From Promethearchaeota archaeon Loki_b32 (GTDB lineage Archaea > Asgardarchaeota > Lokiarchaeia > Sigyniarchaeales > SOKP01), in the NCBI GenBank assembly GCA_005223125.1, contig NJBH01000011.1, positions 1-64,000 of the forward strand: a DNA stretch of 64,000 nt. The letters run 5' to 3'. Shown in pieces: positions 10,083 through 46,671 of the stretch. The first letter of the stretch is position 1; each line of letters opens with the position of its first letter. Both the position numbers and the translations under genes were made by a program. The notes under the pieces were generated by a model that ran no database searches, had not been told where the DNA came from, and saw only the letters and a list, made by a program, of their open reading frames with translations.

Positions 10083-10241
10083 TCATTAAAAAAATTTGAT
10101 TTGATTCTTTTTAGATTTATTAATTTTCCCACAGCAGATTTAGAATGTATTTAATTTTAATAATCGATAATTTTATATATTTCTAAAGAAAATTCAAATT
10201 AATTTTTCATAATATAAAAAAACATTAGGAGTAAAATTAAA

Positions 10242-11492
10242 ATGACTGAAGAATTAGATCCTTTTAAAATTTCTCAAAAACAACTATATGAGGCTTGTAA
10301 AATTAGCGGGTGCGTTAGTGATGTTTATAATGCTTTAAATGAACCAGAGAGATTTGTTGAAGTAAAGCTCCTTATGAAAATGGACGACGGTTCGTTAAAG
10401 ACGTTCAAGGGCTTTCGATCTCAATACAACTCTGCGAGAGGTCCTATGAAAGGAGGTATTAGATGGCACCCTGATGAAAGTGCTTCCCTTGTAAAAGCTT
10501 TATCAGCTTGGATGACTTGGAAAACAGCATGTGTAGATATCCCATTAGGCGGCGCGAAAGGAGGAATAATATGCGATCCAAGAACTATGAGCAATCGAGA
10601 GCTTGAAACTCTCGCAAGAAGTTATATAAGGCAACTTGCAGATTTTATTGGGCCCAATATTGATGTACCAGCACCAGACGTTTACACAAATCCTCAAATT
10701 ATGGCATGGATGATGGATGAATATGAAAAAATCATGCGTAAGCACGCTCCGTCGGTTATTACAGGCAAACCTTTACCTTTAGGTGGTAGTGCAGGACGTT
10801 TAATTGCAACTGCTAAAGGAGGTGCTTTTTGTATTAGAGAAGCAGCAAAGGAAATTGGATTAAATTTAAATGGCGCAAAGGTTGTTATACAAGGATTTGG
10901 AAATGCAGGATCATGGGCTTCTAAAATCTTAACAAACGATTATAATTGTAAAATTATTGGAATATCTGATTCAAAAGGAGGAATATACAATAAAAATGGT
11001 ATTGATCCTACTAAAGTTTTAGTTCAAAAAAAGGAAACATCATCAGTTTTAGGTTTAAAAGATGCTCAAGAGATATCAAATAAGGAATTATTAGAATTAG
11101 AATGCGATATTTTAATTCCTGCTGCTCTTGAAAATGTTATAACACGCAAAAACGCGCAAAATATTAATTGTAAAATAATAGCGGAACTCGCTAATGGGCC
11201 AACTACTCCTGAAGCTGATGAAATTCTATTTAAGAATGATGTTTTCGTAATTCCTGATTTTTTATGTAATGCAGGAGGAGTTACTGTTTCCTATTTTGAA
11301 ATGGTCCAAGGATATTATCAATATTTCTGGACTGAAGGGGAAGTTCTTACTGCTTTAGATCGAGTGATGACTAATGCATATCGTTTTGTTGTTGATAAGG
11401 CAAAAGAATATAACACTTATAATCGAATGGGAGCTTATATAATATCACTTAACAGGGTTATAGAAGCAATGAGATTACGTGGTTGGTTATAA
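10242..11492 (+). CDS. gdhA: Glu/Leu/Phe/Val dehydrogenase (glutamate dehydrogenase) 1
   Basis: [31 protein letters not shown] and [11 protein letters not shown] motifs. Confidence 0.93.
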
Positions 11493-11755
11493 CTTTTTAA
11501 AATTAAAAAGAAATATGAAAAAAGAATTTTAATTATTGTTTCGAAATATATCTTATAAAATTTCAGAACACTCCTTTTTCATTGAATAATAATTTTTTTG
11601 AATTTAATTTAAAAAATTTTCAGAAATTTAACATTTTATTAAAAAAATTCCAATTTGTTACTAATATACTTGAGTTTTATTAAAAATCATTTAGTTTTAA
11701 ATATTTTCAAAATATTAAATAATTATAAAGAAAAATAATTCAAATTGAAAAAATT

Positions 11756-13009
11756 TTGCTTGATATTAATCCCTTTGAAAGTGTTAAAAAAAAACTTGAT
11801 ATTGCTGCAAGATTAATAGAGTTAAATCCAAATACCTTAGAATATCTGAAAAAAGTAGAGAGAGCTTTAATAGTTTCTATACCTATACTTATGGATGATG
11901 GTTTTCTTAAAATTTTCGAAGGTTATAGGGTTCATCATTCTACTTTACGAGGCCCAGCAAAAGGAGGTATAAGATATTCACCTGATGTTACTCTTGATGA
12001 AATGAAAGCTTTAGCGTTTTTAATGACATTTAAAACAAGTCTTTTAAACATACCCATGGGAGGATCTAAAGGAGGAATCTGTGTAGAAACTAAAGATCTA
12101 TCAGAGAGAGAATTAGAAAGATTAACTCGAAGATACACTGCTGAAATTATTAATATGATTGGACCAAGTATTGATGTTCCAGCACCAGATATGTATACTG
12201 ATTCAACCACAATGGCTTGGATTATGGATACATATAGTATGCAAAAAGGGCGAACTATTCCAGGTGTGGTAACTGGTAAGCCAATTGAAATTGGGGGGTC
12301 AATAGGAAGAATGGAAGCTCCTGGAACTGGAATGTATTATATCCTTGATCACCTTTACCAAAAACTAAATTATTCTTTGACTGAAATGAAAATAGTTATT
12401 CAAGGTTTTGGGAAAGTGGGATCTACTGTTGCTAAGCAATTATGTGACCGTTCATGTAATATCATTGCAGTTTCTGAAAAAGAAGGGGGGATTTATTCAC
12501 CAGATGGATTGGATATTAATGAAATATTAAAGTGGACACAAAAAGGGAATTTATTAAAAAATTACGAAGGAAAAGATATTACCCCAATTACAAATAACGA
12601 ATTGCTCAGTACAAAATGCGATGTTTTAATTCCTGCTGCTGTGGAGAATCAAATTTATAGTAAGAATGCAGACAATGTAGATTGCAAAATTATATTAGAA
12701 GGTGCAAACAGTCCAACAACTTCCCAAGCCGACCGTATCTTAAATGAGAAAGGAGTAATTATCGTTCCAGATATTCTTGCAAATAGCGGAGGTGTATGTG
12801 TTTCATATTTTGAATATATTCAAGATATACATAGCTATTTCTGGGGATTAGATCGTGTTAATAGAGAAATGAAAAATATTCTTATTAAAACTTTTGAAGA
12901 TGTCTATAAACTTTCAAAGGAAATGCATGTCTCACTTAGAACTGCAGCATTTGCTATTGGTGCAAAGAGATTAGCGAAAGCTCACGAATTAAGAGGTTTA
13001 TTTCCATAA
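11756..13009 (+). CDS. Glutamate dehydrogenase family protein 2 (divergent motifs)
   Basis: GPAKGGIR, GGSKGG and DVPAPD are present; variant motifs EAPGTG, GFGKVG, ANSPTT. Confidence 0.9.
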   Translation: MLDINPFESVKKKLDIAARLIELNPNTLEYLKKVERALIVSIPILMDDGFLKIFEGYRVHHSTLRGPAKGGIRYSPDVTLDEMKALAFLMTFKTSLLNIPMGGSKGGICVETKDLSERELERLTRRYTAEIINMIGPSIDVPAPDMYTDSTTMAWIMDTYSMQKGRTIPGVVTGKPIEIGGSIGRMEAPGTGMYYILDHLYQKLNYSLTEMKIVIQGFGKVGSTVAKQLCDRSCNIIAVSEKEGGIYSPDGLDINEILKWTQKGNLLKNYEGKDITPITNNELLSTKCDVLIPAAVENQIYSKNADNVDCKIILEGANSPTTSQADRILNEKGVIIVPDILANSGGVCVSYFEYIQDIHSYFWGLDRVNREMKNILIKTFEDVYKLSKEMHVSLRTAAFAIGAKRLAKAHELRGLFP

Positions 13010-13100
13010 TTTATGATATTCGAATCTTAAAATTTGAATAAATTTAAGTTATAAATAGAAATTGATATGATTTTAAAAAAAAAATTGAGAGTGAATTAAA

Positions 13101-14351
13101 ATAGCAATAAATCCTTTTAAAATGGCACAAAAACAGATAGATATAGTATCTGAAATAATGGGCTTAGATTCTAATATTAGACGATATTTAAAAAGAGTTG
13201 AACGTTCATTAATTGTTTCAATTCCGATTATGATGGATGATGGTAAATTACAAATTTTTGAAGGGTATAGAGTTCATCATTGCACAGTAAGAGGTCCTGG
13301 AAAAGGAGGTATACGATATTCCCCAGAAGTCAATTTAGATGAGGTAAAAGCTTTAGCTACTTGGATGACTTGGAAGTGCAGTCTTTTAAATTTACCATTA
13401 GGAGGCGCAAAAGGAGGAGTATGCGTGGACCCTCGGAAATTATCTAAAAATGAATTAGAACGACTCACGAGGAGGTATACTTCTGAAATAATTAATATCA
13501 TTGGTCCTGATATTGACATTCCTGCTCCAGACGTTAACACCAATGCTCAAGTTATGGCTTGGATTATGGATACTTACTCAATGAATAAAGGAAGGCCTGT
13601 TCCTGGAGTTGTTACTGGAAAACCAATAGAAATAGGTGGATCAGTAGGCAGAGAGAGTGCTACTGGGAGGGGAATGTTCTATGTACTTGAAGCATTATGT
13701 AATAAGCTAAATTATGATTTAAAATCGATGAATATTATAATTCAAGGATTTGGGAATGTTGGAGGATGGATTGCTGATATATTATATACCTATGGTAGTA
13801 AAATATTGGCAGTTTCAGATATCACTGGAGGAATTTATTCAGAAAATGGATTAGATATTAAAGAATTATTAGAATGGAGAAATCAAGGAAAATTTTTACG
13901 AGATTTTCAGAAAACTAATTATAAACACATTGGTAATGATGAATTTTTCAGTATAAAATGCGATGTTTTGATTCCTGCAGCTCTGGAGAATCAAATAACT
14001 AAAGTGAACGCAGATCAAATAAATTGTAAGATTGTTTTAGAAGGTGCAAATGGTCCCACAACTCCAGAAGCGGATAAAATTTTGCATAGTAAAAGTATTT
14101 ATGTCGTTCCAGATATTTTAGCTAACGCTGGTGGAGTTTGTGTTTCCTATTTTGAATATATTCAAGATATCCACAGTTATTTTTGGGATTTAGATCGCGT
14201 TAATAAAGAGCTTAAAAAAATTATTGTAAATGCTTTTGAAAATGTATTTACAATTTCAAAAGAGAAAAATTTACCCCTAAGGGAAGCTGCTTATATTATA
14301 GCTCTTTCTCGTGTAGCAAAAGCTGTTGAATTTAGAGGTTTTTTTCCATAA
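13101..14351 (+). CDS. Glutamate dehydrogenase family protein 3; probable ATA start at 13101
   Basis: GPGKGGIR, GGAKGG, QGFGNVG. The conserved INPF motif is encoded upstream of the ATG at 13122, and there is an in-frame TGA at 13092. Confidence 0.9.
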   Translation: MAINPFKMAQKQIDIVSEIMGLDSNIRRYLKRVERSLIVSIPIMMDDGKLQIFEGYRVHHCTVRGPGKGGIRYSPEVNLDEVKALATWMTWKCSLLNLPLGGAKGGVCVDPRKLSKNELERLTRRYTSEIINIIGPDIDIPAPDVNTNAQVMAWIMDTYSMNKGRPVPGVVTGKPIEIGGSVGRESATGRGMFYVLEALCNKLNYDLKSMNIIIQGFGNVGGWIADILYTYGSKILAVSDITGGIYSENGLDIKELLEWRNQGKFLRDFQKTNYKHIGNDEFFSIKCDVLIPAALENQITKVNADQINCKIVLEGANGPTTPEADKILHSKSIYVVPDILANAGGVCVSYFEYIQDIHSYFWDLDRVNKELKKIIVNAFENVFTISKEKNLPLREAAYIIALSRVAKAVEFRGFFP

Positions 14352-22175: not shown

Positions 22176-23300
22176 TTAGTCTGATGTCACGTAATTAACT
22201 TGCCTATCTTTTAAGTATTTAAGGATATATCTATAGTTTTCTTCCTCTACTCCAACATATTCTGGAGGAGATATTCCAACCCTATTAAATTTTCCATCTA
22301 ATACAAGATTTGCCACTGCTGAACAAGTATACCCTGTAGTGCGCGCCATTGATATTGTATCTGTTTCTTTATTGTATTCATCATAAAGATCGTAAATATA
22401 GGTCTTTTCTGCTTGGTTTTCTTGACCTTTAATTAGTATTCGCATGATAGTAAAATCTGCTTCACCGGGTTTTAATTTCCATTTTGGAAATAGTAATTTT
22501 GCAGTGACATCTATCGGTCTTATTTTTATCCCCTTTACATCAATTTTATCATACGAAAAGAATCCACTTTCCCGTAAAACTCGTAGATACTCAATGCATC
22601 CTGGATATCGTAGTGTTTTTTCAATCATATTTGGAATTTTCATAGTATCTATGAGTGATCTTAGTCCATCGGTGTTAAATGCTTCTAGTGTTCCCACTTC
22701 TTTGAAATGGATTAATTCAGGATCTGATAATGCTTCTTTAGTAATTGTGTGAGAATTTTCAACATATCTTGCGAGCCGAGTATATTCTTCAATAACATCA
22801 ATTGGGGAAAAAACTGATTTATATTCATACGGCCATTCACGTATAACTGGTAAACCACCAACATAACAGATGTATTTATCCACTACCATTCTTTCATTAT
22901 GGTAGCCGAGAATGATATTTCCCATACCGGGTGCAACACCACAATCCGTAACAGCGACAACACCATGTTCTTTTGCAATTTTATCAAGGTCTAAAGCATT
23001 TTCTGGGAAAAATGAAATATCAACAATGTTTTTTCCTGCTTCAATGACTGCCTTTACCATTGAATACCCCATAAATCCTGGAACTGCCCCAATAATAAGA
23101 TCGAAATCTTTTACGATTTCATGTATAACTTCTTTTTTTGAAAGGTCGGCTTTCAATGTGTCAATATTATTTCTTGTTTTTAAAATTTCCAATGATTCTG
23201 GGTTGATATCAACAGAAGTAACTCGGAAATTTTTACTTAGATCTATGGCAATAGCATTTCCTACTAAACCCGCTCCAAAAACAGCAATTTTTTTTTCCAT
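22176..23300 (-). CDS. Saccharopine dehydrogenase / lysine 6-dehydrogenase family
   Basis: GAGLVG, DCGVAPG, VGGLP, EAFNTDGLRSL, KTLRYPG and MARTTG motifs. Confidence 0.9.
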   Translation of the reverse strand: MEKKIAVFGAGLVGNAIAIDLSKNFRVTSVDINPESLEILKTRNNIDTLKADLSKKEVIHEIVKDFDLIIGAVPGFMGYSMVKAVIEAGKNIVDISFFPENALDLDKIAKEHGVVAVTDCGVAPGMGNIILGYHNERMVVDKYICYVGGLPVIREWPYEYKSVFSPIDVIEEYTRLARYVENSHTITKEALSDPELIHFKEVGTLEAFNTDGLRSLIDTMKIPNMIEKTLRYPGCIEYLRVLRESGFFSYDKIDVKGIKIRPIDVTAKLLFPKWKLKPGEADFTIMRILIKGQENQAEKTYIYDLYDEYNKETDTISMARTTGYTCSAVANLVLDGKFNRVGISPPEYVGVEEENYRYILKYLKDRQVNYVTSD

Positions 23301-27019: not shown

Positions 27020-27136
27020 AACAAATCCTAACCATTCAATTTTTTGTCTTGATTTGTGTGTAACAATTTTTATCTATAGTATATTGAATTTAGTCAGTTA
27101 TTTAAATGAGCTTATTTTTTACATTTGTGATCATCA

Positions 27137-27796
27137 TTGGTAAGAAAAAATCGACTTCCTAAATTCCCAGAGGATTATTTAAATGATAAGGTAGAAGAAT
27201 ATGATAGTTCGAAATGGATGGAGCGAAATCAAAAGAGATCTACCTTATATAGTTTACAATACCTTATAGACAAGAAATTAAATGATAGGGAAGATAGTGG
27301 GATTGAAATGGGTGTGTCACCCTTAATTTTAGATTTAGGATGTGGTTCAGGATTTTCATCGGTAATTTTAATTGAAAATGGTTTTAGAGTAATTGGTATA
27401 GATATTCTTATTGATATGTTATCAAAAGCAAGGGAAAAGAAAAGGATTTTTAAGGAGTATAAAGCTTTAGAACTTATATTAGCTGATATTAATAATCTAC
27501 CAATTAGGGTCAATTCAATTGATCACATAATTTCAATATCATCATATAATTTTATAATACATGGGATGGAAAATTTTGGTGAAAAAGTAAAGCTCATAAA
27601 TGACACAGCAAGATATTTGCATAAAACTCTGAAAAATAATGGTAGAATTATAATTGAGTTTTATCCTAAAGATGAGATGGAATTAAAAATGTTTAACAAA
27701 TCGTTTATTAATAATGGATTTAGTGGATTTATGGTAAAACAAAATCCAAAACAGAAATCAGGTCAAACATATTTATTATTGAAGAAAAAATCGTAA
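27137..27796 (+). CDS. Class I SAM methyltransferase resembling Bud23/WBSCR22
   Basis: PEDY...EY, LDLGCGSGFS, ISISS, EFYPKD and GFSG...P...YLLL motifs. Confidence 0.75.
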   Translation: MVRKNRLPKFPEDYLNDKVEEYDSSKWMERNQKRSTLYSLQYLIDKKLNDREDSGIEMGVSPLILDLGCGSGFSSVILIENGFRVIGIDILIDMLSKAREKKRIFKEYKALELILADINNLPIRVNSIDHIISISSYNFIIHGMENFGEKVKLINDTARYLHKTLKNNGRIIIEFYPKDEMELKMFNKSFINNGFSGFMVKQNPKQKSGQTYLLLKKKS

Positions 27797-27798
27797 TT

Positions 27799-28944
27799 AT
27801 GGGAACATGTAAGTTTTGTGGGAAAACAGAACAAGATATCTCTGAGGTTCTACAAGTATGTAGAAATTGTATTTTAGCAGGAGATTGGGACAATAAAATT
27901 AAACCCCATATATTAAATGTTCATAAACAAGTTCGTCAGCTTGTAGAATTACCAGAGAAACCTCCTAAAGCAGAAAGACCAAATATTAAACTGAAATGTA
28001 ATTTGTGCCTAAATGAGTGTTCTTTATCAGAAAATGACATTAGTTATTGTGGTTTGAGAAATATTCCCCTTAGAAACTCGGGGCAATTACCTTATCCCTC
28101 AAAATCGAAAGGTTATATTCATGGGTATATAGATTCAAATCCTACTAATTGCTGTAATAGTTGGTTTTGTCCCGCGGGGACTTCGTCTGGCTATCCAGAA
28201 TATTCGAATTATGAAGGCCCTGAATTTGGCACATACAGTTATGCTGCGTTCTTGTATGGATGTTCGTACAATTGTTTAAGCTGTCAAAACTCGTCTCATA
28301 AGCTTTTTTCAAAAAGGCATTTATTTGATGTTGAAACGTTAGTTAATCAAATAGTTAAAAATAAGAAAATCACGTGTTTATGTTATTTCGGTGGTACTCC
28401 AGAAGTCCAACTACCATTTTCAATTAATTTAGCTGAGAGAATTCTTGAAAAAATTAAGGATGAGAATAAATCACGAAAGTTTAGGATATGCTATGAAATG
28501 AACGGAACGGGCAATAAAGATCTAATGGAGAAATGTATACAAGTGGTTATAAAATCAGGTGGTAATATTAAATTTGATTTAAAAAGTTTCAATGAGAAAT
28601 TAAATTTAGCAATGTGTGGTGTCAGTAATAGTAGAACACTTGAAAATTTCAAATCTCTAGCAGAAAATTATTTTGATACGCGGGGAAAAGACATGCCAGA
28701 ATTAAGTGGTTGTACATTAATGGTTCCAGGTTATGTCAACCATGAGGAAGTAGAGTTAATAGCAAGATTTATTAGTGAGATAGATCCTGAGATTCCCTAT
28801 AGCCTTTTAGTGTTTCATGGTGATTATCAAATGAGGGATTTACCTATTACTCCTCGAAAACAAGCTTTAAAATGCTTGAATATTGCCCAAAAATATTTAA
28901 AGAGAGTTAATCTGGGAAATAAATTCTTATTAGGTTTTTCTTGA
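27799..28944 (+). CDS. Radical SAM protein (PflA/AmmeMemoRadiSam-like)
   Basis: CSYNCLSC motif, N-terminal Cys clusters, GGTP and FDLK motifs. Confidence 0.88.
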   Translation: MGTCKFCGKTEQDISEVLQVCRNCILAGDWDNKIKPHILNVHKQVRQLVELPEKPPKAERPNIKLKCNLCLNECSLSENDISYCGLRNIPLRNSGQLPYPSKSKGYIHGYIDSNPTNCCNSWFCPAGTSSGYPEYSNYEGPEFGTYSYAAFLYGCSYNCLSCQNSSHKLFSKRHLFDVETLVNQIVKNKKITCLCYFGGTPEVQLPFSINLAERILEKIKDENKSRKFRICYEMNGTGNKDLMEKCIQVVIKSGGNIKFDLKSFNEKLNLAMCGVSNSRTLENFKSLAENYFDTRGKDMPELSGCTLMVPGYVNHEEVELIARFISEIDPEIPYSLLVFHGDYQMRDLPITPRKQALKCLNIAQKYLKRVNLGNKFLLGFS

Positions 28945-29360
28945 AATTGTTATGAATACAGAAAACATTTACCAAAAGAATATAATCGATTAAAATGTAA
29001 ATAAAAAAAAAGGAATCGAATTATTTGGATAAAACTAGTTATGCCATAGTTAACAACGATTGATTTTTTACCAAATGTCTAATAATGTCTTCAGAAATCT
29101 GTTCTACATTTGGAATAGAGACATTATCTAATCGTTGTCTCAAAGTTGTATTGAAAATTTTATAAAAAAAATAATATTTTACATATTTAAAGTTAAGTTT
29201 ATGCAAAAAAAATTATAATACTTTAGGGCTCATCCTCAAATGAGTCATTGAAGATTAGATAAAAAAATTTATTTAATAGGAAATATTATCGATATCACAA
29301 TATTGAAAAGAATTTTTGATTATAACGTAATTTTATCCTAAATTTTGTGGTGAGTAAAAA

Positions 29361-29666
29361 ATACAAAAAGCACGCATACGGTTGTCATCGACCCAATTAG
29401 ACGCATTACAATCAGTATGCGATTCTGTTATTCACATTTGTTCTACTCAAGGGATTCGGAAAAACGGACCTATTCCTCTTCCTACGAAACGCCTTAAAGT
29501 TCCTGTATTAAAAGCTCCTTCTGGTCAAGGTACTGCTACCTGGGCTAAATTCGAGATGCGTATTCATAAACGGTTATTTGAAATAATAGCGAACGAAAGA
29601 AGCATGCATCTCATCATGAAAATTCAGATTCCTGAATCAGTACTCGTAGAGATTGAGTTAATGTAA
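29361..29666 (+). CDS. rps10: 30S ribosomal protein uS10 (archaeal type); probable ATA start
   Basis: (M)QKARIRLSST...GPIPLPTKRL...EMRIHKRL; the ATA at 29361 follows GGTGA. Confidence 0.95.
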   Translation: MQKARIRLSSTQLDALQSVCDSVIHICSTQGIRKNGPIPLPTKRLKVPVLKAPSGQGTATWAKFEMRIHKRLFEIIANERSMHLIMKIQIPESVLVEIELM

Positions 29667-29683
29667 TTATAACACTTATTAGT

Positions 29684-30445
29684 TTATAACTCATCTAATT
29701 TAATTTGGATTGACTCATTAGTTAGTTTTGCTTTTTTATCAATCTCAATATTATCAACATAATAAACAGTTCCAAGAATTTCAGATCCTTGACCAATTGT
29801 TACAACCTTACCTTTAATATCTCCTTCTACATGAGTTTTGATGATATCTACATTATTTTTAGCGAGTATACTTCCATGAATTTTGTAATGCTGTTTTTTT
29901 ATTTTTTCTCTTGAAACTCCAAAAAGAACATCCTCAGCTACGACATTCCCTTCAATATAAGTCGATCCATCAATAGTAATATTTTTCTCAGAAGATAGAT
30001 TCCCATTTATTTCTGAAGAACCACTTAATTTAATTCCTTGTTCTCCCCTAACAAAATGTCCTGCTTTAAAACTTCCCGAAGCTATTAAAGATCCTTGGAT
30101 ATTAATAACATTACCTATTTCTGCTGAACCAGAGAAATCGGCATCCTCCTCTCCAGTAAGAAATCCAGCAATATTAAATGAACCCGAACTACTAATATCC
30201 CCATGTACTGTTATATTCCCAGACCCTTTTATGACTCCCGATGAAGTAAGTCCATTACATTCTAAATCCCCATTAATTATTCCTGAGCCTGAAATTCGTA
30301 GAGATTTATTAACTTTTCCTCCTGAGATTTTAGTAGATCCAGAAGCACTAACATGTTCTTCGAATTCTTTTAAATCACCAGAGCTACTTATCACGGCTCT
30401 TTTCTCATTTTGCTTATTGGAATTATCCTCATTTTTCTTAATCAT
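29684..30445 (-). CDS. Polymer-forming cytoskeletal (bactofilin-like) beta-helix protein
   Basis: Repeated ISGSG.I.G.L / IDGS..IEGNV.A beta-helix rungs. Confidence 0.75.
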   Translation of the reverse strand: MIKKNEDNSNKQNEKRAVISSSGDLKEFEEHVSASGSTKISGGKVNKSLRISGSGIINGDLECNGLTSSGVIKGSGNITVHGDISSSGSFNIAGFLTGEEDADFSGSAEIGNVINIQGSLIASGSFKAGHFVRGEQGIKLSGSSEINGNLSSEKNITIDGSTYIEGNVVAEDVLFGVSREKIKKQHYKIHGSILAKNNVDIIKTHVEGDIKGKVVTIGQGSEILGTVYYVDNIEIDKKAKLTNESIQIKLDEL

Positions 30446-30628
30446 ATTAATTCGCTTGGAAAAAGTATTTACTATTAAATAACCGCAAATTTAATAAAAC
30501 TTTTTCTTTTTTACTGAACTTTTAGAAAATATCCTTTAAGTAATTACTCAGATTTAAATCAATAAATTGATATAATTTTACTAAATAACAGTATTTTTGC
30601 TTTAAAAACGTTTTACAAGTGAATTAAA

Positions 30629-33531: not shown

Positions 33532-34707
33532 TCAATCTGGTATATTAATAGGATAATTTCCATACTTTCTTTTAATATTTTGCATTGCCTCAAAATGTTC
33601 TACAGGTATAACTGGATTTATTGAGTGACCAGAAGCAAAAATATAGCCTCCTCCAGGTGCTAATTCACGAATTAATTGTTTTGCATAAGTTTCAATTTCA
33701 TAGATCTCTCCATAAGCTAACATTATTGGACTTACATTTCCACAGAATGTAATTTTATCTCCATATTTTTTATGTAATTCAAAAATATCATAATCTGGAT
33801 TTGCAGTAGTTGATTCAACTGGATTTATTACATCTACTCCACACGCAACTATATCTTCAAAGATTTCAAGTAGATCACCATCAGAATGTAGAAATATTTT
33901 ACAATCTTGTTTATGAGCTGCATTACAAATACGTTTCAGCCAAGGAAAAACATAAGTCTTGTAATTTCTTGGACTCATGAATAAACCATTTTTAAACCCA
34001 TAATCATCGTAGAGAAGTATTAATTGAGCGTCATTTTCGGCTAATATCTTTACAATTTCTAAAGTAAACTTACCTCGATCATCAAATACTTTTTTTGCTT
34101 GCTTTTGTTTTGCTAATATTCTTACAAAGTTTTCTAATCCAAAACCTTGCCAGGAACATTCCATCAAAGCACCCGTAGATGGAATCGAGAACACATCATT
34201 ATTTAATTCCTCTTGTGCTTGCCGTCCTGCTAAAAAATTATTTAACCTAGCTTCCCAATAAGGATCTAAAGGTTCCCAGCTTTCATAATCATCAAAATCT
34301 TTAAAGTATCCTCCATGATATCCCAAAATAACTGTTTTATCTTTTTCATAAACTTCAAACTTCATAATACGTCCATATTCATCAATATAACCTTCACCAC
34401 TTTCTAAAAGTATACGCGGATATATTGAAGCAAAGCTAACTACAATATCTATTTCAGCTCGGCGGAAAAATTCGTAAGATTTAAGATTACCCCTTTTGAG
34501 TATTTCTATATTTTTTATACCTTTTAAATAAAGCTCTTGTCCAGCTTTACCTAATTTACTTAACTTTGCTAGAATATCTCTAAAACCTTGATCAGTTGGA
34601 AGATTGTAATGATTAATTATTGAATTATTAGAGATAATTTCAAAAGCAGGAACTCTATCAGGTTCTTCATGATTTATTACTTTTAAAACTCTTTCTGGTG
34701 CTTTAAT
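33532..34707 (-). CDS. Uroporphyrinogen decarboxylase family protein; probable ATT start at 34707
   Basis: The frame stays open for 114 codons upstream of the track ATG and begins IKAPERVLKVINHEEPDRVP, the family N-terminus; LHSDG and GGGYIFASGHS motifs. Confidence 0.85.
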   Translation of the reverse strand: MKAPERVLKVINHEEPDRVPAFEIISNNSIINHYNLPTDQGFRDILAKLSKLGKAGQELYLKGIKNIEILKRGNLKSYEFFRRAEIDIVVSFASIYPRILLESGEGYIDEYGRIMKFEVYEKDKTVILGYHGGYFKDFDDYESWEPLDPYWEARLNNFLAGRQAQEELNNDVFSIPSTGALMECSWQGFGLENFVRILAKQKQAKKVFDDRGKFTLEIVKILAENDAQLILLYDDYGFKNGLFMSPRNYKTYVFPWLKRICNAAHKQDCKIFLHSDGDLLEIFEDIVACGVDVINPVESTTANPDYDIFELHKKYGDKITFCGNVSPIMLAYGEIYEIETYAKQLIRELAPGGGYIFASGHSINPVIPVEHFEAMQNIKRKYGNYPINIPD

Positions 34708-35413: not shown

Positions 35414-35563
35414 ATTTTTTCATAATTTCTTTTTTTTCATAATACAAATTTGACATTAATGGATAAATTTATATATCTGTATTCTTCGTCTTTCTATGTA
35501 AGTTAGGGTTTAAGGTAACATATTTTAAAGAGAAATTACTGAATATTATACTGAGGTGATTTT

Positions 35564-36025
35564 ATCCCTAAGGACGCATTAAAGTTTTTTCACGCATATG
35601 TTAAAGAAATGATTGATATAGGTGGGAGTAATTTACCAAAAGCAATTTCTACTAAATCTGGGTCAAAACTGGGAAAATTATATAAAGAAAGAGGATTAAC
35701 TGTAGATATCGGGATTGCTTTAAAACAAGTATATTCTGCACTTAAAGCAAAACCATTGATAAAAAAACTAAATGATGATACATATGAAGTGATTATTAGA
35801 TACTCAAAAAAATTCTGCCCTATAGGAGGGGCTCATAATCCCTCCCGAGCTCCGATTTTTCAAGAGAATATTTGTATTCCTTATACACGGGGTTTTTTAA
35901 ATGAACTTTTTCCACAATTTACGTTTGAAGCAGAAATTTTAAATTGTATACCACTTAATAATCAACATACTTGCCATTACATTCTAAAAATCAAAAATAA
36001 GAAGAATACAGATCACATAACTTGA
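35564..36025 (+). CDS. V4R/MetOD1-like protein 1; probable ATC start
   Basis: The upstream in-frame KDALKFFHAYVKE matches the paralogues; FCP, ICIP, NC and TC cysteines; GAGGTGA SD. Confidence 0.75.
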   Translation: MPKDALKFFHAYVKEMIDIGGSNLPKAISTKSGSKLGKLYKERGLTVDIGIALKQVYSALKAKPLIKKLNDDTYEVIIRYSKKFCPIGGAHNPSRAPIFQENICIPYTRGFLNELFPQFTFEAEILNCIPLNNQHTCHYILKIKNKKNTDHIT

Positions 36026-36196
36026 CTTGAAGGTTTTTTCTAATTCAATTCATGAAATTTTTCTTTAAAAATCTTAGAAACGCTCCTTTCCTTTTTTATT
36101 ATCAAATAAATAATTCTGATAACAAGTCTTAAATAATTTAAAGTGGAGATTAATCTAGATTTTTCTTAATTATTTTAAAATATACATCTCAAACTT

Positions 36197-36655
36197 ATGT
36201 CAAAAAATAAGGATTCTTTAAAGTTCTTTCAAGCATACATTAAAGAAATGATCGATATTGGAGGAAAAAATTTACCAAAAGCCATCTCTAGTAAATCGGG
36301 GGCAAAATTAGGAAAAATGTATAAAGGAAGAGGATTAACTTTGGATATTGGAGCTGCATTAAAACAAATTTATACTGCATTGAATGGAAAACCAGTGATA
36401 AAACAATTAGATGAGAATAGATATGAAGTAATCGTAAAATTTGCAAAGAAATTTTGTCCAATCGGGGGTTCAAACAATCCATCTCGAGCTTCAATTTTTC
36501 AAGAAAACATTTGTATTCCCTACATGCGAGGATTTTTAAATGAGATTTTTCCCCAATTCACGTTCGGAGAAGATATCTTAAATTGTATTCCCCTGAATAA
36601 TCAAAAGACTTGCCATTTTATTTTAAAGATCAAAAATAAACAACATATCAGTTAG
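36197..36655 (+). CDS. V4R/MetOD1-like protein 2
   Basis: Tandem paralogue with the same four cysteines. Confidence 0.75.
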   Translation: MSKNKDSLKFFQAYIKEMIDIGGKNLPKAISSKSGAKLGKMYKGRGLTLDIGAALKQIYTALNGKPVIKQLDENRYEVIVKFAKKFCPIGGSNNPSRASIFQENICIPYMRGFLNEIFPQFTFGEDILNCIPLNNQKTCHFILKIKNKQHIS

Positions 36656-36868
36656 TTATCATGTAAATTTTACAAGGATAATAATTTTATAGTAAAATAA
36701 AATTAGGGTATTTCCTAATTCACTTTATAAACTCTTTTATTTAAATCTTGAAAGCTCTAAATATTTGATTTATTTTCAATTAAATAATTCTTATAAAAAG
36801 TCTTAAATACTTTAATGTTGAGATTTAACTATATTTTACTTTATCAATAAAATAAACACAATAATAAA

Positions 36869-37327
36869 ATGCAAAAAAATAGAGATGCTTTAAAATTCTT
36901 TCAGGCGTATATTAAGGAAATGATTGATGTCGGTGGTATTAATCTTCCTAAATCGATCTCTGCCAGCTTAGGTGCCAAATTGGGTAAATTATTAAAACGA
37001 CGCGGAATATCTGGATTAGAGAATACTCTAAAAAGAATATATAATGTTCTTAATGCTAAGACTCAGATAAAAACAATAGATGATAATACTATGGAAATAA
37101 CTTTGCGTTATCGATCACGTTTCTGTCCTCTTGGAGGAGAATATAACCCTGATAGGGCTGAACTTATTCAAAATACAATATGTATCCCTTATACAGTAGC
37201 AATTTTGAATATTTCTCATCCTGAGTATAAATATAGTGCCAAAATAATGGAATGTATTCTTAATTCCAATCAAAAAAATTGTAAATATCGACTAGTAAAA
37301 GAACTGAAAAGCATTGACAATAATTGA
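36869..37327 (+). CDS. V4R/MetOD1-like protein 3
   Basis: Tandem paralogue with the same four cysteines. Confidence 0.75.
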   Translation: MQKNRDALKFFQAYIKEMIDVGGINLPKSISASLGAKLGKLLKRRGISGLENTLKRIYNVLNAKTQIKTIDDNTMEITLRYRSRFCPLGGEYNPDRAELIQNTICIPYTVAILNISHPEYKYSAKIMECILNSNQKNCKYRLVKELKSIDNN

Positions 37328-43411: not shown

Positions 43412-44130
43412 CTTTTACAAATCATTTAGTATTTTGTTATTTTAAATATACCATTTTTAATATTTTAATGATAACATGTTAAGAATTTAATGATAAAATT
43501 ATGGATTCTCCTATTTTAAATTAGTATTTAGAATTATAGAAGGGGAAAAAGATATCTTATGATGAAAGAATAGATTTTTAATATTTTAATTCAGAAATAT
43601 TTATTTCAAATCTAAATTACAACACTTTTGGTTTAAATATTAAGAAATTTACCAATAATATTGATTCTCTCCTTAATGTGATATAAAAATAATTTTTGAA
43701 AAAATAGAAATTGAATTTTATGATAAGATAGAACTAAAATTTATAATCCATATAAAGAAAATTAGAAAAGGCATTTTAACGAGTAAAGAACACTAAAATT
43801 AAAGATTTGAAAAAATGAACTAGCAATCCGTGGGAGATATATACTGTTCATTATAATATGGATTTCCCAAAGGAAGAATTTGTCTTAGAAAACATACCCC
43901 TCAGATATTGGGTTAATATTATCTAAGTGTTGGTGATAAACTTAGTTCCCAATATAGGCATTTTTTGACAGGTGATGATTAAAATGCAAAATTTCTAGTC
44001 ATTTACATTACTCACAAAAAACCACCCCTCAAAATTTATGAGTAGACGCTTTCTTTTCATCAATTATTTTTTGAGGAAAATGCATAAAAAGGGTAGTCCT
44101 CATTTTATGTTAATTAGGTAAATAAAAGAA

Positions 44131-45367
44131 GTGATCAAAGCATTGGCGACATATAAAACACTTCAAGAGAGTGGACTATTCCCTACTATATCACATCTCA
44201 ATTGCGATATTTGTGGATCTTCTAATATTATAGAAAATCTTGAGGGATATGTGTGCCGGGATTGTGGAATTGTATTAGGAAATTCAAAAATTACAATACG
44301 ATAGACCTTATAATGAAGATTTAATCCAATATGCCAAGGGTGTAGGCAAAACACAGATAGGAACGAGGCGAGAAAGAATAATCTCGCCTCTTTCTATCAA
44401 ATTACAAAGAATAAACAAATACAATTCTATAACCACCAGTGAACGAGCAGTAATTGAGGGAGCCCGTATTGAAGTAGCGAGGATCTTTAATTATTTAGGT
44501 TTAGATGGATATGATGCTTTAAAAGAAATGGTTCTAGATAAGTTCAAAAAAATTAGAGCGAAATTTAGACAGGGTTCAAAATATAAAAACATAGAAAAGC
44601 TAGTTTCAATTACGATTTATTTCTGTCTTAAGCTTAGGAATGTATCTATTAATCCATACGAATTGATTGAAATTTCTAAAATTTCAAAAAAAGAGTTCAA
44701 TGATTTCATTTTGCAGCTTCAAAAGTTCTTACCAGAATATGGTGAACGTAATAGACAGGAATATATTTCCCAGAGAATTCTCGAAATTTCTGAACATTTT
44801 GATTTAGGAATGCCATTTTACTTTCTTTCGAAGAAGATTTTGTATAGGTTATGGCAAGGAATTAAAAATACAACTGATAATGTAGTTGCTGGATTAATAA
44901 GTTCAATCTCTATTTTATGTTCGTATAAAGAAAAGGTAAGTGTAAGTTCCATTTGTAATCGTTTAGGTATTAGAATGAGTACTGTCTAGGCACAGGTTAA
45001 GAAAAAGATTTTTCAGAGGTTTAAAGTTGTGGGATTTGTAAGTTTAATAAAATCGTCCGATTTCTTAGTGAAAATAATAAATAAATTAGGGATTTTAGAA
45101 GAACCAGGATTAAGAGATTAGGAAGATGGAGGAGAAATCATTCTCGGAAATGCTTCGAAAATATTTAATATTCATAATGATTTAGATTACTATTATTTTG
45201 CACTACCAGGAAAAGAAAAATACCCTATATTTCTTTTTCTTAAGGTTTATGATTCTCCGTTAGATTTTAATTATGAAAGACGTCCTAAAATTAAAGGTGA
45301 TTCATTACTCGATTTTGAATTATATAAGTATTATACATCTAAAGACCCTCCTTTATTAGGGATTTAA
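44131..45367 (+). pseudogene. TFB/TFIIB-like protein pseudogene
   Basis: Zn ribbon CDICG...VCRDCGIVL; frameshift near 44279; cyclin-like helices; in-frame TAG at 44987 and 45119. Confidence 0.75.
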
Positions 45368-45487: not shown

Positions 45488-46183
45488 ATGGAAAACATCC
45501 ATATCCGTACAAGAAAAGATGAAGATGTAAAGAAATATCTCAAACCAATGTATATTTACAAAATTGGAGTCGATCTAACAAGTTTAATGGAAGACGTTTA
45601 TAAGTTAATAACTATGGTTCTCGAAGAACGATTACACTATCTTTCTCAGTTAAACTTTTTAGAAACTAAAGGAGAACATTTACATACTAATATCATACGA
45701 AAAGATTTACTCAAATTAAATACAGAGTTAGTAAGGCTATTACAGAGTAATGGGGATAAAACCGGAGTATATAGTGCCCTCTCTATCAATGCTCAAGCAT
45801 TAATCCTTTACCACATGCTAGAATTAGTAGAGCAACAAGGTTTAGATGTTTTATTAGATTATTTTATAAAACTTAGCAAGGATGCAAAAAAGAAAAATAG
45901 CTCAAAAGCTGCCAAGATATTAGCTTCTGATGGACGATTGCAAAGAATTTATTTAGAATTAAAAAAAAATGTTGAATTTTCTCCTGAAAACCTTATTCAT
46001 CCGAAGTATCATGTATTAGTTAAGATAATTTCAGAACAATTACAGAATAATCCCTCCTCTCGGATTTTAGTATGTGTAAAATTAAGAAATTCAGTAAAAA
46101 ATATCGTAAATAGACTAAAAGAAATAAAAACGATAAAACCAAAACGTTTTGTAGGTCAAGCAACAAAATTTTTACATATCTGA
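45488..46183 (+). pseudogene. Internal fragment of a Hef/FANCM-like helicase
   Basis: HPKY, SRILV...R and RFVGQA motifs; lacks the Walker A/B region and motif VI. Confidence 0.8.
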
Positions 46184-46355
46184 AAAATAATCCTTTTTTG
46201 ATTGCTTCTTTTTGGATCTCACGTAGTTGAAATATTTTTCCTTCAAAAAGTACACGTAGAATACGCTTATCATTAATAAATTTAAAAATATCTCTGTTTG
46301 TGGAACATTCTATTTTTTCTTTCTCAAGTTTATCAGAAAAATCTCCTAGAGTTAT
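46178..46355 (-). pseudogene. 5' fragment of a Ski2/Hel308-like helicase
   Basis: IFQLREIQKEAIKKGLFFR (Q-motif-like), cut just before the expected Walker A; GGTGA SD followed by ATA. Confidence 0.6.
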
Positions 46356-46368
46356 TATATATCACCTA

Positions 46369-46671
46369 TTAGTATGGATTTGTCCATTTTTTCATAATTT
46401 CTGAAAACGTCTCTGAATCTCTCGATATCTCTATACTTTTAATGACTCCTATATTTCTAACTTTTAACTCTAAATTAATATAACAGATTAAACTATGAAG
46501 AGGTTCTCCATGTAAATGAATATGAGGGAAATATATATTCGGATTCCCTTGTTTTAAGATATAATATTCAATTCCAAGCTCAATTTCTTTATTACATAGC
46601 GGACATATAACCTTTTGTGCCTGTCGTTTAACTTTTCTGAGATCCTTAATTCTACCAAAAACGATAACGAT
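46369..46671 (-). CDS. 100-aa putative Zn-binding protein absent from the ORF track (ATC start)
   Basis: Open frame (I/M)VIVFGRIK...CPLC...PHIHLHGEPLH...WTNPY*; GTGA SD; in-frame TGA immediately upstream. Confidence 0.75.
   Translation of the reverse strand: MVIVFGRIKDLRKVKRQAQKVICPLCNKEIELGIEYYILKQGNPNIYFPHIHLHGEPLHSLICYINLELKVRNIGVIKSIEISRDSETFSEIMKKWTNPY

Follow-up and report, generated by a model that had tools for sequence, protein, structure and literature searches.

Does the gene of the essential ribosomal protein uS10 begin at ATA, and, if so, is this a peculiarity of one gene or a property of the whole genome? Reviews list AUG, GUG and UUG as the only start codons of archaea (PMC7531240). 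The window considered here, i.e., the whole stretch of 64,000 nucleotides that was analysed, belongs to a Lokiarchaeia genome of 4.13 Mb and 29.9% GC. The leader of its rps10 gene reads GGTGA (29349-53), a 7-nt spacer, then ATA (29361-63) followed by CAA AAA GCA.

The Start of the uS10 Gene

The features of the locus are the following:

29258..29279, + strand: BRE/TATA-like element, conserved in 40/40 relatives, 62-103 nt 5' of the ATA; putative promoter, according to the archaeal consensus
29349..29353, + strand: Shine-Dalgarno (SD) motif GGTGA, 7 nt 5' of the ATA; GGTG precedes 48/49 ATA starts of uS10 but 1/20 ATG starts, 16 of the ATG cases being one clade
29355..29357, + strand: in-frame TAA, two codons 5' of the ATA, which closes the frame (read from the sequence)
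29361..29363, + strand: ATA, almost certain start codon of uS10; conserved in 40/40 close relatives, the tree showing 0 changes
29361..29666, + strand: rps10 (uS10), 101 aa from the ATA; Pfam PF00338, single copy, residue 1 corresponding to Met1 of solved archaeal uS10
29382..29384, + strand: TTG (Leu8), first canonical codon of the frame and start chosen by gene callers, giving a truncated protein of 94 aa

The frame opened by the ATA is intact and its product, whose N-terminus reads MQKARI, gives a full-length match to the Pfam domain Ribosomal_S10 and is the sole uS10 match in the genome. Most of its nearest uS10 relatives bear the label Promethearchaeota (Lokiarchaeia). The product can be aligned 1:1, starting with residue 1, to the uS10 of Thermococcales seen in solved ribosomes, and a start at the TTG would therefore cost seven conserved residues, including QKARIR, which is kept from Thermococcales to eukaryotes. 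The sequence-only reading had placed the start at this ATA, at the Met position and at normal SD spacing, and had warned that the TTG would shorten the N-terminus. Both proposals are borne out by the closed frame, by the alignment with Met1 and by the 40/40 relatives, and translation of uS10 almost certainly starts at AUA. The gene lies away from other ribosomal genes (window 27131-30490), with SAM methyltransferase and radical SAM genes upstream and a convergent gene encoding a bactofilin domain.

As the BRE/TATA-like element is found 62-103 nt upstream in 40/40 genomes, the uS10 mRNA is probably leadered, with a leader of about 60 nt. A leaderless start at the ATA had been envisaged and was dropped in favour of this better conserved element. 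The 16S rRNA gene was not found in the assembly and the SD motif was taken from the archaeal consensus rather than from the 16S rRNA of the host; this motif is enriched before the ATG, TTG and GTG starts of the genome.

Conservation of the ATA Codon

All the congener-level uS10 loci (20/20) carry ATA behind GGTG, while genomes of the sister family mostly carry ATG. Among 80 further loci, the start column holds ATA (48), ATG (20), TTG (6), GTG (4), ATT (1) or GTT (1), with about 15 changes of start codon on the uS10 tree, and a canonical codon lies upstream of the N-terminus in just one of the 80. Since the column swaps almost only among start-like codons and the 5' flank is unconserved and bears stops, it would correspond to the initiation site. 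It had been anticipated that ATG in all the orthologues of close relatives would speak against the ATA; the 40 close relatives checked for uS10 all carry ATA. It should be emphasized that these counts come from related genomes, which are not independent of each other.

On the tree of the 40 closest genomes (length 4.7), the ATA underwent 0 changes versus 2-13 at two-fold or Ile sites beyond codon 10. As codons 3, 5 and 6 are also nearly invariant in these genomes (1-2 changes), the fixity of the ATA is moderate evidence for selection on the codon itself, and part of it may be due to selection for an A-rich 5' end rather than for a weak start. In other genera of the family, uS10 begins with ATG, TTG or GTG; AUA is therefore not required.

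Probable ATH Starts in the Rest of the Window

The same association of an SD motif with ATA, ATT or ATC (ATH) had been noticed at five other sites of the window. Each of them is located in the column where orthologues carry ATG, TTG or GTG, so that this observation holds for the whole set, the site at 13101 being the weakest:

13101..14351, + strand: Glu/Leu/Phe/Val dehydrogenase, probable ATA start; orthologues have ATG or TTG in the column
33532..34707, - strand: URO-D-family gene, probable ATT start in the Met column; ATA in two congeners
35564..36025, + strand: 153-aa protein without Pfam match, probable ATC start behind GAGGTGAT, in the Met column
46020..46355, - strand: 111-aa protein, probable ATA start behind AGGTGAT; the column alternates between ATA, ATT, ATG, GTG and ACG among relatives
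46369..46671, - strand: 100-aa Cys-containing protein, probable ATC start; ATC in 5 relatives, ATG in others

The ATA at 13101 is private to the host genome and its SD is weak; an ATG found 7 codons downstream would drop a conserved NPF motif. It may have arisen by mutation in the host alone, or from an error in the consensus. A downstream start or a consensus error is possible for this gene and, to a lesser extent, for the one starting at 34707. The first canonical codon of the latter is 114 codons further on, and a one-base error in the host genome is possible given an out-of-frame ATG 5 nt upstream. The ATC at 35564 is common to the relatives G009 and G017, other genera having ATG or TTG, and the first canonical codon of the 46671 gene lies 92 codons downstream. 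With six ATH sites for about 54 ORFs, the window slightly exceeds the genome rate of 4.8% (binomial p=0.04).

Other particularities of the window include two sets of tandem paralogues on the + strand: three Glu/Leu/Phe/Val dehydrogenases (10218-14351) that start with ATG, TTG and ATA in turn, and three copies of a 150-aa protein without Pfam match (35555-37327), of which the first only has an ATC start. At 44122-44989 (+ strand), a TFB-like zinc-ribbon N-terminus (CxxC...CxxC, judged by eye) goes on in a different frame from about 44279, due either to a frameshifted gene or to a consensus error.

Genome-Wide Census of ATH Starts

Looking for such starts throughout the genome reveals a large excess of ATH codons behind SD motifs. 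When no canonical start follows the motif, an ATH is found in frame at 4-8 nt in 89 of 280 cases versus 44 of 586 off frame (p=4e-19), a comparison that is reference-free. The spacer distribution peaks at 6 nt, as for ATG. Behind GGTGA lacking a canonical start, ATH represents 51% of the in-frame codons located at 5-7 nt versus 14-16% behind control motifs. The census, filtered against the spacers of canonical starts (the pairwise test being filtered against antisense shadow ORFs), yields 86 SD-led ATH ORFs, versus 15-24 for control codons or wrong spacers; about one quarter of this list is expected to be false positives, for example an eL14-like gene with an ATG 11 codons further on. Shuffled-SD controls gave 19-38 ORFs, or 57-70 if the shuffle retained GGTGA; codon and spacer controls were therefore preferred. 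The same SD-led class includes 176 ATG, 59 TTG and 14 GTG ORFs, so that SD-led ATH genes outnumber SD-led GTG genes.

The orthologue-anchored approach leads to the same picture. Among 392 genes, 19 (4.8%) have no ATG, GTG or TTG before the conserved core; 18 of them offer ATH and one CTG. The corresponding figures are 5/162 and 6/164 in two other genera; for a genome of the sister family, the rate is not significantly lower than that of the host (1/109 versus 3/128, p=0.63). An SD of at least 5 nt precedes 14 of the 19 non-canonical starts and 39 of 279 ATG starts (p=4e-8). Taken as an estimate, about 3-5% of the genes would be ATH-initiated, and ATH very probably constitutes a genome-wide, SD-dependent class of starts.

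The genome-wide occurrence that six sites had led the sequence-only reading to propose is thus recovered by both approaches. By contrast, its idea of a general relaxation of start selection does not fit the data, the non-canonical starts depending on an SD that most ATG genes lack. Its restriction of the relaxation to the third position is only partly upheld: ATH codons prevail (rates per codon of 0.037 for ATT, 0.027 for ATA and 0.022 for ATC) and AAG and AGG never occur, but CTG (0.054, 4 cases) and ACG (0.035, 2 cases) reach similar rates, although on small counts; all the remaining codons are below 0.01.

aIF1 and Other Core Genes

The genes with ATH starts are functionally mixed, with ATT and ATC in the majority, and include those of uS10, uS14, uL15, uL16, eS26, eL34 and a proteasome alpha subunit. 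They also include the gene of the initiation factor aIF1/SUI1 (contig C48, about 127290-127610, minus strand), which has an ATT at its start, an in-frame stop two codons upstream and no available canonical start. This gene is ATH-initiated in 39/39 legible genomes of the family, belonging to 12 genera, and ATG is absent from its start column in all of them. In 30 of these genomes there is no canonical alternative; in the other 9, an in-frame GTG is found inside an SD-like motif four codons upstream. Outside the family, the gene begins with TTG, ATG or ATA in sister families and with ATA, CTG, GTG or ATG in other Asgard families, ATA being forced in one of these and ATA or CTG likely in two more.

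The other genes behave in various ways. For example, uS14 has ATH in 10/15 genomes of the family, from four genera. In contrast, the uL16 gene starts with ATC in the host and G009 and with ATA in G073; three further congeners have ATG, and all the other genera ATG or TTG. The starts of uL15 and of the 46355 gene swap freely among relatives. In the best reading of these sequences, there would be two classes of ATH starts, labile (uL16, uL15, 46355, 13101) and conserved (aIF1, uS10, uS14).

Several of the core genes have other unusual features. A second proteasome alpha gene (contig C4, about 22305-23050) has an ATA start and a hairpin-forming insert of about 29 nt, which changes the reading frame; this insert may be an intron of the tRNA type (bulge-helix-bulge) within a protein gene. 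In relatives, ribosomal genes are split by stops or frame changes, i.e., uS8 in G048, G123, G050, G118, G120 and G060, uS3 in loci L143, L146 and L148, and uL6 in loci L159 and L161, which suggests introns in protein genes there too. The uS19 of the spc cluster (contig C11, about 72290-72860) carries a long acidic N-terminal extension in the family of the host and not in the sister family.

Initiation Machinery and Genetic Code

The proposal that the ATH pattern bears on aIF1 has to be reformulated: the factor is concerned, being itself ATH-initiated, but its sequence looks intact. It retains the zinc knuckle, the basic loop 1 and the GGT and ELQGDH motifs (for the list of features, see PMC6237735), and judged from sequence alone it looks functional. 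The genes of aIF1A and of aIF2 alpha, beta and gamma are present and start with ATG, and uS9 ends in Arg; a second gene of the eIF5/aIF2-beta family was not found in the genome. The aIF2-gamma protein (contig C49, L394:1501-3048 minus) has about 110 extra residues, consisting of an N-terminal helix-hairpin-helix (HhH, PF14520) and a Lys/Pro-rich linker; within the order, many genomes have aIF2-gamma frames of 476-625 aa, while other genomes have frames of about 400 aa.

The initiator tRNA gene (contig C48, 102824-102968) adjoins the aIF2-beta gene and encodes a CAU anticodon, an A1-U72 pair and a G-C anticodon stem. One of its two inserts lies at 37/38 and the other in the T loop; ARAGORN missed the gene on account of these inserts, as it did several other intron-bearing tRNAs, and the gene was found via relatives. 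Its congeneric counterparts have none, one or two inserts, at different positions. The "tRNA-Ile(tat)" reported by ARAGORN was rejected as an initiator, as it is devoid of initiator features and resembles an intron-bearing tRNA that has been mis-spliced. Inspection of the genes, at the DNA level where tRNA modifications do not show, thus brought to light no defect of aIF1, of aIF2 or of the initiator tRNA.

Within conserved columns, internal ATA aligns with Ile in 59-71% of cases and with Met in 2-3.5%, like ATT and ATC and unlike ATG. Joined to the intact-looking factors and to the CAU initiator, this indicates that the simplest mechanism would be SD positioning with a tolerated mismatch at the wobble position.

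How Could an AUA Codon Be Used as a Start?

In the explanation that we favour, to which we give as a whole a probability of about 0.75, the GGUGA of the leadered uS10 mRNA would pair with the anti-SD of the 16S rRNA, setting the AUA in the P site. The ordinary Met-tRNAi (CAU), brought by aIF2, would accept the third-position mismatch, so that the protein would start with Met and would be a normal uS10. The lineage would tolerate such SD-anchored near-cognate starts (ATT > ATA > ATC, and a few CTG or ACG) in about 3-5% of its genes. The labile starts, for which some congeners have ATG instead, are suggestive of drift that is tolerated in a genome of 30% GC, while the conserved ones (throughout the family for aIF1, within the genus for uS10 and in several genera for uS14) would probably be kept weak, lowering or tuning output. 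We infer actual initiation at these codons, its efficiency and its regulation from their identity, columns, conservation and SD dependence. Since aIF1 rejects AUU, the very codon at which its own gene starts, the level of this factor could be set by a negative feedback, with a stringency loose enough for SD-led ATH genes; this autoregulatory feedback is a prediction that we hold with a little less than even confidence.

The most serious competitor is a purely neutral origin, in which AT-biased mutation would turn ATG into ATA or ATT whenever, thanks to a strong SD, a slow-growing cell does not suffer from the loss, none of these starts being selected as weak. It fits uL16, where ATC or ATA occurs in three of six genomes of the genus and nowhere else, the free swaps of uL15 and 46355, the functionally mixed list and the known trend of SD compensation of weaker starts (PMC5622118). 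It accounts poorly for the aIF1 column, which is never ATG, and for the lack of any ATG in uS10 of 40 congener-level genomes despite common A-to-G changes at body codons, and we regard it as a real but minority prospect. An altered fidelity machinery, i.e., a weakened aIF1 or aIF2, or an initiator tRNA able to read AUH thanks to a modified C34, like that of animal mitochondria, would explain the preference for third-position variants and the lack of AAG and AGG starts. It could also be evoked by the Trp found in loop 1 of aIF1 at the position of P. abyssi Tyr32, a residue important for 30S:mRNA stabilisation, and by the HhH domain added to aIF2-gamma. However, neither of these two features tracks with ATH use: the Trp loop is common to Asgard families whose aIF1 starts with ATG, and long aIF2-gamma frames also exist in the sister family and are absent from some members of the family. 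Besides, the initiator tRNA gene is standard and the strong SD dependence implies that mismatches are still penalised, making such an alteration unlikely.

The codon could also differ in the mRNA or in its reading, a real AUG being created by A-to-I editing or by splicing of a tRNA-type intron, or the frame being reached by frameshift from an overlapping upstream ORF starting at the GTG within the SD. Protein genes do seem to carry short inserts (proteasome alpha; stops inside uS8 of some relatives) and there is an A-run after the SD in the host. However, editing cannot yield ATT or ATC, the majority of cases; of the 40 uS10 leaders, whose lengths span a range of 40 nt, 27 are devoid of ATG; the leader fold is ordinary (z=0.22) and the A-run is not conserved among relatives, so that we consider this very improbable. 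Still less credit can be given to a start at the downstream TTG or to an ATA due to a consensus error. TTG is a common SD-led start here and is chosen in most database entries, but the Leu8 codon is TTA, CTT or CTG in 13 of 40 relatives, which, with the loss of QKARIR, largely refutes it for uS10, and the ATA is present in 49 separately assembled genomes. As for a genome-wide reassignment of ATA to Met, suggested by its presence in the Met column at starts, it is refuted by the internal ATA codons aligned with Ile. SD-anchored near-cognate initiation, in which tolerated drift would dominate beside a conserved and perhaps regulatory subset, thus remains the preferred reading.

Comparison with Known Systems

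Animal mitochondria, whose genomes are AT-rich, use AUA, AUU and AUC as starts, AUA being also an internal Met codon read by a modified tRNA, on leaderless mRNAs. The host shares the ATH starts and the AT richness, but its internal ATA codons encode Ile and its starts are SD-led.

Near-cognate starts are already known in single bacterial genes (PMC2830850, PMC13009471) and have been inferred in an Asgard tubulin (PMC13394414). In S. aureus, strong SDs support AUU and AUA starts at 10-30% of the AUG output (PMC13009471). E. coli pcnB (AUU), S. aureus cvfC1, ccpN and citZ (PMC13009471), and Deinococcus dnaA (ATC) and rpsL (CTG) (PMC2830850) combine, like the genes described here, a near-cognate codon with a normal SD spacing, and conserved and even essential genes, a ribosomal protein included, are concerned. 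However, the host has an aIF1/aIF2 machinery, uses such starts in 3-5% of its genes, compared with 4 Ribo-Ret sites in S. aureus, and does so for several ribosomal proteins at once (uS10, uS14, uL15, uL16, eS26, eL34). The inferred ATT start of atubA from Kariarchaeaceae, another Asgard group, is also located at SD distance and truncated in GenBank, but it concerns one gene, called "rare", without genome-wide pattern or link with aIF1 (PMC13394414).

The closest parallels for aIF1 are factors that control their own synthesis. In Sulfolobus, an AUU mRNA is bound by initiation complexes that lack aIF1 and rejected once aIF1 is present, and bacterial IF3 (infC) autoregulates through its AUU start (PMC4705826); infC of S. 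aureus starts at AUA (PMC13009471). In both infC and the aIF1 gene of the host, a factor rejecting near-cognate starts is itself encoded from an AUU or AUA kept by relatives. However, aIF1 has a SUI1 fold unrelated to IF3, its feedback is only predicted, and such genes number no more than a few in E. coli and S. aureus versus about 60-170 in the host genome. Eukaryotic eIF1, the orthologous factor, also autoregulates through its own weak start (PMC4705826, PMC6237735); it keeps AUG in a poor context, whereas the aIF1 gene of the host has a near-cognate codon instead, set in position by an SD.

For archaea, non-canonical translation has been stated as shown in elongation and termination only (PMC8211752), and Ribo-seq of Haloferax found about 30% of the putative alternative starts to be near-cognate, but these were set aside (PMC7261190). 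In the mainly openly accessible literature, we came across neither a genome-wide survey of ATH starts in archaea nor a description of their routine use by core genes of an archaeal lineage, of aIF1 autoregulation or of a non-AUG start of aIF1.

Consequences for Annotation and for the Biology of Lokiarchaeia

The systematic mis-annotation foreseen from the six sites is real without being universal. Callers do truncate the protein, 7 of the 9 members of the uS10 cluster being the 94-aa TTG form, but the 101-aa form is found in two NCBI entries, with ATA as start codon in the two contigs examined. More generally, ab initio callers would cut the N-termini of 3-5% of the proteins in many Lokiarchaeia genomes, with consequences for phylogenomics, structure prediction and cloning; the Asgard tubulin is an example of the harm done by such truncations (PMC13394414).

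With tens to more than 100 ATH-initiated genes per genome, ribosomal proteins included, the picture of archaeal start codons would change. The lineage had been presented as the closest to eukaryotes, but it is an Asgard branch other than Lokiarchaeia that is at present placed nearest to them. The AUU start of aIF1 offers a testable route to the question of whether fidelity feedback of the eIF1 type predates eukaryotes. We tentatively envisage that ATH is a routine fourth class of starts in Lokiarchaeia and that the AUU-started aIF1 acts as a self-adjusting dial of stringency that would co-regulate uS10, uS14 and others. If true, this dial would be the archaeal counterpart of the IF3 and eIF1 feedbacks, and autoregulation by start-codon sensing would exist in all three domains of life.
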